From positions 13,504,837 to 13,568,836 of the forward strand of contig NC_081374.1 of the NCBI RefSeq assembly GCF_030684315.1: a DNA stretch of 64,000 nt, in the 5' to 3' direction. The position numbers were made by a program, and so were the translations under genes. The notes beneath the pieces were generated by a model. The model was given only the letters and a program-made list of their open reading frames with translations. It was not told where the DNA came from and made no database searches. Source of the stretch: Stegostoma tigrinum (lineage: Eukaryota). This document shows positions 10,346 through 52,752 of the stretch, piece after piece (within the stretch, counting starts at the first letter, position 1; each line of letters begins with the position of its first letter).

Positions 10346-11117
10346 TTTGTAAGTGTCTTATTTATGATCTCCAAAAGAATAACACATTCTATAAATTTGG
10401 CATGTATTACATATGGTCCTATTGGATGTGATTCCACAGGATTAAAGCTTCGTGTAAACTTCTACATAAGGCAATCTTCATCAGAGAGGCTGTAAGACAC
10501 TGAAGAAAGAAAAATAAAGTTTTGCAGTAGGGGGCACTCTTTCTGGAAATTGGGATGAAAGCACATTGTTGAAAAGGAGAAGAAACAGCTTTACAGTGTA
10601 CCTACCTGCATTAACTTTACACAAGAGTGTTTAATGCTGATATTGGGAGACAGAAGTAGAATAAATGCTTCATTTTGTGATAATTGTAATGTTTCATCTC
10701 CTTGAAAACAAAATCTACCAAAAGCATTTAAGAAGGAAAGAAATTTCAATGCTGAAAGAGTATCTTTCTTTCTTTCTTTTTGAATGCCTTAAAGAAGCAA
10801 CATCCACAAAACAAAGGTACTTCTTGACCCTTCTTAATTATTAAATGAAGGAACATTTGACTTCATAAAATGGAATGTACAATTGCACATATTTTGTGAA
10901 AGATCACTTTGGATTGTGGTGTTCTGATTCCTTCCTTTTCAAAAATTCTCTCACCAGAACCATTCCTACTCCAGTCCTTGTAGAATTTTTAAAAATATTT
11001 TCAGACCAGATTTACCTGCCACTAGCTCAGTTTCGAGAACAAAAGTCAGGATGGGTGACTTTGCCCCAGCAATGTTTCAATGCTGGACTTACACTGGATG
11101 CCAGGAGTTGTTTGAAA

Positions 11118-11349
11118 GCAGAAACAAAAGTGGAAATTGCTGGAGAAGCTCACCAGACCTGGCAGCATCTGTGGAGAGAAATCAGATTTAACACTTCAAG
11201 TGAAGTGACCCTTCCTCAGAACTTCTGAGAAAGGGTCACTCGATACAAAATGTTAACTCTGATTTCTCTCCACAGATGCTGCCAGATCTGCTGAGCTTTC
11301 CCTGCAATTTGTTCTTTTGTCTCTGACTTACAGCGTCTGCAATTTTTTC
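11118..11349 (+). mobile_element. Fold-back non-autonomous Penelope-derived element
   Basis: About 100-bp inverted arms centred on 11222 (cctcagaa-c-ttctgaga). Exact 12-bp TSD agttgtttgaaa (11106-11117, 11350-11361). Confidence 0.8.
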
Positions 11350-13390
11350 AGTTGTTTGAAATCAACTGTGTCAATGTGACTGTTAATTGTAGCCTTCTCT
11401 GCTTGGATGGGAACATCCCCATCAAGCAACATAGCCAATATCATGAGCTCACCATATGGTGTAATTTACAGTACACATTGGTGCATTAATGATACATGTA
11501 GAGCTAACTTATACCACCTACCTAAATTTATGGGCACATCTAAATGTGAAAAAAATTCAACATTTATAATAGAATATCTGTAAATACTTTGATGACAACA
11601 TGAACAGAATATACAATAAATACAATTATTAATAAATAAGTTTCTGATACTCAAATACAATACCTCAAAAGTTAACCAAGTTTCATCACCAAAACCCAAA
11701 ATTGACGCAAAATGTAGCTCTTAAACAGAATTTTGGTTGACTAGTTATTGACTAAATTTCAAAATTACTTAATCTTTGATAAAGTTGAAGCTAACAATAT
11801 AAAATATAGCAAGGAGCTATTAACATTTAGCAAATCAAAAATAAGTTCAATCATTTATTTAAAAGTCACAGGGTATTTGCTTACCTTAGACTGACAGGTA
11901 GTGCTGGATTATATCTGTCTCCTCAGGTGTTACAAACTTGAGCACATTACCTCTCAGCATAAAGTTCTGAACAGGCTGGTGATTTCTGCTTAAATAGAAA
12001 ATGAGTCATCAGGTACAATAACAATGTGTTGCTTATACTGTCTTTTGAAAATGATTTGCTGATTTTATTTAAATGGCAGTCTGTATTGGACTGCAGCAGA
12101 CAGGACAGAACAATTACATGACCAGCAGGTAGTAAGAAAAAAGAAAAAGCAATGTATTTACTTTCTTAGTGACCTTCTTTGAAACGAGTTCAGCAAAGTC
12201 TTTGATAGTTGCAGTTAAACCTTTTAGGTAGACTTAAACTATTTTAAGACTGTGAAGAATGTTACCTATTTTGTGTTCATTATCTACTTCAGACAATTTA
12301 GCTTTCTGGATAATTTGTTTAAGAAAGTGTTTTAGAGTATGCAAAAATACTAAACATAGCAATAAGGAACTCATACATAGACAGACAATATAATTTTAGA
12401 GAAAAAAATGTCCTACTTTGGAATGTTACAATCTTCTATTTTGTGATCATTTTTAAAATAATTCATTCTTGGGATTGTGTGTTGCTGGAAAAGCAATATT
12501 TAATGCCCATTCTTAAATGAGGCCGTTAGACAATTTCAGAGAGTGATTAAGAGCCAACTAAATCGACGTGGGACTGGAGTCACACATAGGATTGTTTGAG
12601 TAAGAATTGCTAATCCAGTAACACATCCACATCCAGAAACACAGGCTAACATATATGCTGTGTAATTATGTATCGTTACACATTACGCTATAAGATGTAA
12701 GATGGGTGCAAAACATATCAAGACATTCCCACTATTTAAGTCTAAGAAAAAACGTTAGAAAAATTCACACTTTATCTGGCTATCTAAGGACAGATTCACC
12801 TTGATGATAGTGACTCTTCCACTTCAATGTGTTGTTCTCTGGAATGCCGTGAAGTAGATTCCAGTCCACCATCAGGAAATTTCTTTCCATCTGCTTTGCC
12901 GTCTCTCCAAATCAGGGGTGAACAAATTCACTTTGCACTTTCCTATGTCTCCAGCTGTGTAAAGGAGCAAATCATCTGAGTGTCAGCTTGATTTAAAATT
13001 ATGGAAATAATTAAAGAGAACTCCAATGCCAAGTTCATAGGTCAGAAATCTATCAGTACATAATAAACTACACTTAATCTGACTTTTCATGGCATGCCTC
13101 ATAAAAATTCTACAATGCTTGGATGAAGATTGAACTTTGAACAAAATATAAGAAAAACTGCTATCTCATTCCCTTCATTAATCCAGTATTGTGAATAAGA
13201 TGCTATCAGCCATCTACTTTAAACTGTTAAATTTGATTGGCTCAAATGATTGCATGCAATTGGCAAAGCATAGATAGACTGAATAAATGCATTATGCCAT
13301 GAATCTGGGGAGCCATGAAGTTTTTGGAATGCGTCATGTAGCTGTTGGGTTTGCTTATGTTCTAAAGTCAAAGAAACATTCTGTCTTCTT

Positions 13391-14485
13391 TGGGCCATCT
13401 CCAGCACATCCCTCACCTTCCTGGGCCTCTCAGTCTCCATCTCAGGCAACCAGCTTGTAACCAATGTCCATTTCAAGCCCACCGACTCCCACTGCTACCT
13501 AGAATACACCTCCTCCCACCCACCCTCCTGCAAAAATTCCATCCCCTATTCCCAATTCCTCCGCCTCCGCCGCATCTGCTCCCACGATAAGACATTCCAC
13601 TCCCGCACATCCCAGATGTCCAAGTTCTTCAAGGACCGCAACTTTCCCCCCACAGTGATCGAGAACGCCCTTGACCGCGTCTCCCGTATTTCCCGCAACA
13701 CATCCCTCACACCCCGCCCCCGCCACAACCGCCCCAAGAGGATCCCCCTCGTTCTCACACACCACCCTACCAACCTCCGGATACAAAGCATCATCCGCCG
13801 ACACTTCCGCCATTTACAATCCGACCCTACCACCCAAGACAGTTTTCCATCCCCACCCCTGTCTGCTTTCCGGAGAGACCACTCTCTCCGTGACTCCCTT
13901 GTTCGCTCCACACTGCCCTCCAACCCCACCACACCCGGCACCTTCCCCTGCAACCGCAGGAAATGTTACACTTGCCCCCACACCTCCTCCCTCACCCCTA
14001 TCCCAGGCCCCAAGATGACTTTCCACATTAAGCAGAGGTTCACCTGCACATCTGCCAATGTGGTATACTGCATCCACTGTACCCGGTGCGGCTTCGTCTA
14101 CATTGGGGAAACCAAGCGGAGGCTTGGGGACCGCTTTGCAGAACACCTCCGCTCGGTTCGCAATAAACAACTGCACCTCCCAGTCGCAAACCATTTCCAC
14201 TCCCCCTCCCATTCTTTAGATGACATGTCCATCATGGGCCTCCTGCAGTGCCACAATGATGCCACCCGAAGGTTGCAGGAACAGCAACTCATATTCCGCC
14301 TGGGAACCCTGCAGCCATATGGTATCAATGTGGACTTCACCAGTTTCAAAATCTCCCCTTCCCCAATTGCATCCCTAAACCAGCCCAGTTCGTCCTCTCC
14401 CCCCACTGCACCACACAACCAGCCCAGCTCTTTCCCTCCACCCACTGCATCCCAAAACCAGTCCAACCTGTCTCTGCCTCCCTAA
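13391..14485 (+). CDS. Partial Penelope ORF: RT C-terminus/thumb, Cys-rich linker, GIY-YIG endonuclease (no native start)
   Basis: The frame of ORF 13616..14485 stays open upstream to the insertion edge (LTFLGLSV...VHFKPTDSHCYLEYTSSHP...SIPYSQFLRLRRICS). Linker CNRRKCYTC; endonuclease VVYCIHCTRCGFVYIGETKRRLGDRFAEH...HF...H...EQQLIFRLGTLQPYGINVDF. Confidence 0.9.
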   Translation, partial: WAISSTSLTFLGLSVSISGNQLVTNVHFKPTDSHCYLEYTSSHPPSCKNSIPYSQFLRLRRICSHDKTFHSRTSQMSKFFKDRNFPPTVIENALDRVSRISRNTSLTPRPRHNRPKRIPLVLTHHPTNLRIQSIIRRHFRHLQSDPTTQDSFPSPPLSAFRRDHSLRDSLVRSTLPSNPTTPGTFPCNRRKCYTCPHTSSLTPIPGPKMTFHIKQRFTCTSANVVYCIHCTRCGFVYIGETKRRLGDRFAEHLRSVRNKQLHLPVANHFHSPSHSLDDMSIMGLLQCHNDATRRLQEQQLIFRLGTLQPYGINVDFTSFKISPSPIASLNQPSSSSPPTAPHNQPSSFPPPTASQNQSNLSLPP

Positions 14486-51859: not shown

Positions 51860-52510
51860 GCTTCCTCCACCTGCTCTTACTGGGGCTCACATACTGCCAA
51901 TGTAATGAAGTCCTTTTAGCAGGACTAAGATGCCAAGACCACCACAGTCCTTGACATCTTAGCTGGAACGTATAGTAGGGCAACCCTAGCATCCAAATTG
52001 CGGAGTCAACATTCTAGCGATGTGGCTCATGATCACTTTTGTGGAAGTCAATATATTAAACCAGGCCGATTAGAAATGACTAAATCTTATTAGCTATGCT
52101 ATGTTTGTTTGTAGGTTATATTTAGTGTGTGTTTGTTGGGTGGAGAGGAGGAGAACATCACAGTACGTGCTGCAGCCCTGCTAACTTAGGTGTGGCTATT
52201 TGTAAACATTTCTTGTCTTTTCACCTGTGCTTTGGAACAATCAAAATTTCTTGGAACTTCAATCCCAACCTCTTGGTATTTATTCCATGTGCATATTTGA
52301 CCAAGGGGCTTATGTATTTAGCTGCATCACCAGCGTCAAGATGTGATTTGTCAAACCTGCAAAAATTTTCATGTTACCAAAAACATTAACCTTCTTCACT
52401 TCTTTTACCCATCGACCAGAATCAATTCATAACATCTTCAAGTTTTATTCATCAGCCATTTTATATAATCAACTCCTATGAGATAATGTTGGAGTAACCT
52501 ATCTATATTT
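51860..52510 (-). pseudogene. Harbinger (HARBI1-like) DDE transposase C-terminal relic
   Basis: The minus strand at about 52008-51930 reads LRNLDARVALLYVPAKMSRTVVVLA, matching the RFRCLD..G.LQY.P..V..I.V.C motif. Confidence 0.55.
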
Positions 52511-52511
52511 G

Positions 52512-52752
52512 GAGAAAACAAGGTGTAGAGCTGGATAAACACAGCAGGTCAAGCAGCATCAGAGGAGCAGGAAAGCTGACGTTTCGGGTCTGGACCCTTC
52601 TTCAGAAATGGGCATTTCTACATTTCTGAAGAAGGGTCCAGACCCAAAACGTCAGCTTTCCTGCTCCTCTGATGCTGCTTTGTCTGCTGTGTTCATCCAG
52701 TTCTATACCTTGTTATCTCAGAATCTCCAGCATCGGTAGTTCCTGCTATCTC
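52512..52752 (+). mobile_element. Fold-back Penelope-derived element (family related to the 13.4-kb element)
   Basis: Near-perfect inverted arms around about 52615. The minus-strand arm has an intact CTGAAGA-A-GGGT-CCAG-ACCC-GAAAC-GTC motif (52578-52605). Confidence 0.8.

Follow-up and report, generated by a model that had tools for sequence, protein, structure and literature searches.

The window analyzed here is a stretch of 64,000 nucleotides from the shark Stegostoma tigrinum (assembly GCF_030684315.1, contig NC_081374.1, positions 13,504,837 to 13,568,836 of the forward strand), and it harbors short fold-back insertions, or stubs, built from the ends of Penelope-like elements (PLEs). Five of these had been proposed at 11118, 25783, 41478, 45565 and 52512 in an initial annotation made from the sequence alone. 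All five are present as inverted repeats with arms that are 83-91% complementary; the element at 25783 really starts at 25753, 30 bp earlier. Every one of them consists of a tailed Penelope terminus placed head-to-head with an untailed one. Arms were scored against the consensus ends of subfamilies A1, A2 and B, which were built from a sample of the genome, and positions inside termini are numbered with C3 of the hammerhead motif as 0. Four of the five inserts are of family B; the fifth, at 52512, is of subfamily A2.

The family B stub at 11118..11349 has a short arm (-) followed by a tailed arm (+), with neither core intact, between exact 12-bp target-site duplications (TSDs; 11106-11117 and 11350-11361). 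In the stub at 25753..25956, the tailed arm (-) is truncated at +12 and contains no CUGANGA, the short arm (+) begins at -3 with C3 mutated, and the likely TSD is 11 bp long with one mismatch. The stub at 41478..41711 combines a tailed arm (-) in which G5 is mutated with a short arm (+) that has an intact core at 41616, and the one at 45565..45800 combines a short arm (-) with a tailed arm (+), neither core being intact; both lie within 13-bp TSDs with one mismatch (41465-41477 and 41712-41724; 45552-45564 and 45801-45813). The A2 stub at 52512..52751 consists of a short arm (-) with an intact core at 52605, an 8-nt insert and a tailed arm (+) with G12 mutated, and it has no clear TSD. The three clear TSDs of 12, 13 and 13 bp reported for the window are thus as described, whereas the proposal of a hammerhead motif on each arm fails, as all 11 core bases are present in only two of the ten arms (41611+ and 52612-).

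The architecture was surveyed in 149 evenly spaced 10-kb stretches at round coordinates (1.49 Mb of a 3.2-Gb genome) together with the window, leaving out matches that scored below 50 or ended before +40. This yielded 479 termini and 121 head-to-head pairs, compared with three tail-to-tail neighbors and one tandem neighbor, far more than chance would give; 230 of the 458 termini outside the window are paired. Pair length ranges continuously from 109 to 3930 bp. Mini pairs account for 102 of the pairs, and the 96 found in the 1.49 Mb give an estimate of ∼2x10^5 per genome. The termini show two 3' end peaks ∼36 nt apart, and the tail of ∼36 bp is found on one end only. Tail class and TSDs were called in 119 of the 121 pairs, leaving out two at stretch edges: a tailed arm is joined to an untailed one in 112 (59.5 expected), and a TSD of at least 10 bp, with one mismatch allowed, surrounds the whole unit in 85, against 0-2 in three shuffled controls. 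The arms overlap at the junction in 42 of the 121 pairs, are joined bluntly in 11 and are separated by an insert in 68.

The parent of family A is represented in the window by a 5'-truncated coding A1 copy at 13391..14842 (+). It comprises the end of the reverse transcriptase (RT), a CxxxxCxxC linker, the exact pattern of which we take to be a Neptune-like mark, a GIY-YIG endonuclease (EN) and a terminus with hammerhead (C3 mutated) and tail, within the exact 15-bp TSD already ascribed to it. Coding copies seemed to share a fixed 5' end, which proved to be merely the truncation point of this copy. The RT motifs of family A were seen by eye in the sample locus L172 and in longer copies; its RT fragments gave no Pfam or PDB match, and the GIY-YIG match has E 8e-4 (below the Pfam cut-off) and an Atlas value of 0.95. 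In L172, a near-complete RT-EN copy carries on its 5' side a tailed arm in inverted orientation, the textbook arrangement, and the copy at L187 starts at -1 and runs through hammerhead and tail on into the open reading frame (ORF). In family B, the DNA upstream of the terminus can be aligned to the endonuclease region of family A at 65-72%, and no full ORF was recovered in the loci examined.

A minimal hammerhead core and stem II are present in the consensus of all three subfamilies. The call rests on the minimal hammerhead ribozyme consensus of PMC4209133, and the shark motif shares with the minimal type I hammerheads of metazoan PLEs the core, the extra base before stem II and a palindromic minimal helix III. 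Stem I has 2 bp in family A and 4 bp in family B. The available text of PMC4209133, which also describes dual hammerhead motifs in Schistosoma, placed on opposite strands at a distance of 100-700 bp, contains no analysis of TSDs, tails or junctions. An Rfam scan of the window gave 10 matches at E<=1, none of them a hammerhead, and the miRNA matches are generic hairpins under the gathering score. A test of core conservation (A1 0.013 vs 0.029, A2 0.059 vs 0.065, B 0.064 vs 0.101) is biased by alignment ends and polymorphic sites and was left unused.

Arms and monomers share a 5' limit, or wall, which lies 4 nt before C3. Between -8 and +1 there are 40 ends in A1, 57 in A2 and 54 in B, compared with two, five and three between -33 and -9, and the same wall is seen in monomers. 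Relative to this wall at -4, the subfamily consensuses have a TATA-like box at -30 (A1), -31 (A2) and -29 (B). In the coding copy of the window, the box lies at 14679..14684 (+), 30 nt before a putative transcription start that is itself 4 nt before C3 at 14713, where it may function as a promoter. By consensus motifs for transcription starts, -4 in B and A2 matches an initiator, and in A1 it suits a start at a pyrimidine. Among the best-scoring 30 of 772 candidates crossing the tail-to-UTR (untranslated region) junction, 22 start between -1 and +113 and eight extend upstream.

The letter before the A1 wall at -4, where the element has C, is G in 8100 cases genome-wide, A in 1352 and T in 2667; one position on, before -3, the control gives G 2305 and A 2651. 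Among the joints to -4 listed in an independent public run, all three carry a single G. An extra G at the 5' ends of full-length L1 copies has been read as a copied cap (PMC11702581). In A1, the wall at -4 is likely to mark a capped transcription start, which for B and A2 is only plausible. Since transcription would begin 4 nt before C3, the hammerhead would make up the first ∼32 nt of the RNA. The symmetry center does lie near the core, as had been noticed, and the likely cause is this transcript start rather than a ribozyme that folds the cDNA back.

A minority of A1 junctions sit not at the wall but at the predicted cut site of the hammerhead, after N17. Of the 12 joints with inserted letters listed in the public run, four fall at +28, immediately 3' of the predicted cut. 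Across the genome, 3599 A1 boundaries were counted at +28, against 723 at +29 and 276 at +27 (the last by a narrower pattern), and 60 of the first 100 boundaries at +28 carry the two preceding letters of a perfect palindrome. A self-complementary 4-mer directly follows the cut, and palindromes of equal length at other such 4-mers therefore served as controls: 727 perfect A1 palindromes were counted genome-wide at +28, compared with 24 at +55 and, with CpG decay allowed, 53 at +23. Among the first 15 at +28, at least four variant haplotypes are represented, the two arms match in most, and a TSD is present in 12; they are therefore recurrent products. The excess is likely the footprint of hammerhead cleavage in vivo, and the second RNA end at +28 in A1 is likely the cleavage product.

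Each stub consists of two end pieces of an EN-bearing PLE, placed head-to-head between TSDs. Together with the tailed and untailed arms, the heterogeneous junctions, the size continuum and the 5' wall, this architecture indicates that the stubs are probably made anew at each insertion by priming on both target strands from sense RNA, followed by joining. The element protein would cut both strands of the target and prime reverse transcription on each, on one strand at the tail end and on the other 36 nt upstream. Both cDNAs would copy the sense RNA toward its 5' end and would then be joined by microhomology or by end-joining with short inserts. The second option of the initial annotation, a stereotyped by-product of reverse transcription, is supported in this form. 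A further reading, which we regard as evenly balanced, is that the stubs record a PLE replication intermediate in which one ribonucleoprotein primes both strands at two fixed sites, most ends being the capped start and a minority the cut of a ribozyme that decaps its own RNA.

The closest biochemical precedent is PAc, the Poseidon protein of Anolis carolinensis, which in vitro cuts and extends both strands from two internal start sites that bound the tail (PMC11167929). PAc is a predicted dimer, hammerhead cleavage is assisted by the protein, and uncleaved RNA is the main template. The stubs would be alike in having two start sites that bound a tail, extension on both strands, a hammerhead just upstream and uncleaved RNA as the main template, and by this analogy the two arm ends would correspond to the two internal initiation sites of the anole element. 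Family A differs in its CxxxxCxxC linker, which is Neptune-like by PMC8557442. In its available parts, PMC11167929 reports that RNA-seq reads with ends at the cut site were not found, and it contains no description of fold-back stubs. A second comparison is L1 twin priming (PMC11702581), which shares the inverted 5' segment, the retained TSD, junction microhomology and the extra G; there, adjacent pieces of one RNA are primed by chance homology, whereas the stubs have a fixed second start and arms that usually overlap fully.

Several observations weigh against two-strand priming from a capped and cleaved RNA. Of the first 40 cases with G before the wall, 17 could owe it to the partner arm, three are point substitutions and 20 are neither, and clean single-G additions number two. 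In family B, to which four of the five named elements belong, G is only weakly in excess (509, against 420 for A and 204 for T genome-wide, counted without a neighbor control), and in the sample the extra G occurs in one of eight B cases and two of nine A2 cases. No cut-site peak was seen in A2 or B in the sample. Stem I of A1 has only 2 bp, an alternative helix closing at +29 is predicted, and stalling of the RT could mimic cleavage. Subfamily variants are common to both arms in 110 of 140 cases in A1, 51 of 82 in A2 and 46 of 106 in B (shuffles 0.24, 0.17 and 0.15), as are 26 of 203 rare changes (0.015 shuffled), and the 5' ends of the arms are equal in nine of 21 short pairs, above chance (p=0.01), and in two of 18 long pairs. 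One junction recurs in eight of 23 family B loci, which were chosen for likeness to 41478, with an extra base on either arm. CpG decay common to both arms lies inside the shuffle range. A T/C difference between arms at the 41478-like loci was put down to query selection; the minor allele has a frequency of 6% in the sample.

The shared variants and equal ends also fit self-priming, in which a single cDNA, or the antisense template proposed in PMC3846280, folds back and extends to a hairpin, which is then resolved by the endonuclease to give one tailed and one untailed end. The inverted piece at 34955 and, at some junctions, short inserts that are self-complementary point the same way. As a general account this is unlikely. 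The tailed arm is the truncated one in 39 pairs and the other arm in 21 (p=0.027), and a truncated tailed arm accompanies a complete short arm in 19 cases, the reverse holding in six. In four pairs the arms nearly abut, which precludes copying of the tailed arm from the short one there. The extra G and the TATA spacing indicate a capped sense template, and the ends of the stubs point to sense RNA primed twice rather than to antisense self-priming. Arms are also discordant in some pairs with a single TSD (L095 and L284). From the variants shared within pairs and the lack of separation between long and short arms, the pairs appear to arise insertion by insertion, each from one RNA or one source, and the arms are occasionally discordant. 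Snap-back may nevertheless stay alive for a share of cases, given the shared rare variants and equal ends. At L095 (6713-7492), a single TSD surrounds arms that have private changes in common but disagree at a linked block of subfamily-specific positions; a template switch and two RNAs are the candidate readings.

It is very improbable that the stubs form a palindromic family of non-autonomous, retrozyme-like elements that is transcribed and multiplies as a unit, as the first option of the initial annotation had it. The estimated ∼2x10^5 mini pairs and the recurrence of some junctions would suit such a family. When junctions were compared as had been suggested, however, 94 of 96 mini-pair junction triples were distinct, and a local duplication in locus L167 accounts for one of the two repeated triples. 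At p<0.02, none of the 96-98 sites per family distinguishes long arms from short ones, arms are as distant from their own class as from the opposite one, and the cut-site palindrome recurs on several haplotypes. Both cores are intact in three of 102 mini pairs, on opposite strands, and each strand of a stub carries only one sense hammerhead. In predicted folding, the probability of stem II is 0 in the whole 41478 element and 0.67 in a single arm. The ∼100-bp hairpin expected from either strand is seen in the predictions for both, but as a plain hairpin in which the ribozyme is predicted to be masked, and the stub is likely dead once inserted. Non-LTR (long terminal repeat) retrozymes (bioRxiv 10.64898/2026.07.22.740005) are likewise non-coding and derived from the pseudo-LTR (pLTR) with a type I hammerhead motif; they are defined by tandem repetition, with two or more consecutive units that have complete motifs, whereas the stubs are inverted and mostly core-defective, with one tandem neighbor among the termini and no sign of amplification from master copies. 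An assembly artefact or a later inverted duplication of an existing monomer is scarcely credible, for although palindromes are difficult to assemble and a 98% inverted repeat lies at 26269-26995, the arms differ by 5-19% on average, a single TSD frames both, arm ends are fixed at two sites and similar joints occur in contigs of independent public runs.

A sixth pair, absent from the initial annotation, is an A1 fold-back without any hammerhead at 7475..7583, with arms +45..+91 and +74..+128 and a 12-bp TSD with one mismatch. The decayed case reported at 2895 is a clear family B tailed arm at 2894..3004 (-), the partner of which is weakly alignable (alignment score 31). The short case at 34955 is an A2 monomer (+6..+125) at 34955..35090 (+), with a short inverted stretch from its own 5' region in front of it; this stretch has no Penelope 3' end, and the insert is hence not a full fold-back.

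Other repeats accompany these elements. A third hammerhead-bearing family, with 25 matches in the genome sample, is represented by a monomer at 34556-34690 (+) with a core at 34576, a 6-bp stem II and a flanking 12-bp direct repeat. A dispersed repeat forms a 99% identical inverted pair at 26269-26504 and 26760-26995 that looks far younger than the fold-backs, possibly an assembly effect. A tRNA-like match at 43083-43164 (+), which may represent a tRNA pseudogene or the head of a SINE, has 34.1 bits and exceeds the Rfam gathering score. Many decayed copies of an abundant LINE-like repeat, presumably of CR1 type, are present (e.g. 9575-9982 and 38367-38930), with no Pfam match. In the sample, the same fold-back stands twice in L167, at 2824-3037 and 5015-5226 in inverted relative orientation, and family A inserts occur inside or beside family B termini at L090 (3740-3941) and L244. 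Matches were found in 13 public RNA-like runs with shares of at most 0.10, in contigs only, the runs being unconfirmed as RNA and derived from other organisms; the flanks are uncovered in the three examined, which have no bearing on expression or editing.

The stub architecture of an inverted pLTR, a tail and a TSD is already published. Complex insertions of EN+ PLEs (Pen2a_Av, PMC3846280; scheme in PMC8557442) contain an inverted 5'-truncated copy, a one-sided 30-40-bp tail and a TSD, and the stubs agree in their RT and GIY-YIG parent, inverted truncated neighbor, tail on one end, TSD round the whole unit, pLTR hammerhead and TATA/Inr-like motifs. They differ in that most lack any ORF and in their copy number. 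Added here are the 5' wall with its TATA spacing, the extra G in A1 and the cut-site palindrome excess. In the main text of a literature of incomplete coverage, no paper was found on ORF-less shark fold-back stubs, twin priming by PLEs, or cap and cut-site footprints.

The ends of the stubs bear on PLE replication, and the value of the finding lies there. How PLEs make inverted tailed insertions, and whether minimal hammerheads cut in vivo, are called open in the available text of PMC8557442, PMC4209133 and PMC11167929. If the reading of the cut-site ends is true, they would provide genomic evidence for germ-line cleavage by a vertebrate minimal PLE hammerhead, and hundreds of thousands of insertions would yield base-level predictions of start site, cut site and two-strand priming for an existing in vitro system. 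The stubs also constitute a large reservoir of ∼100-bp hairpins, perfect when formed.

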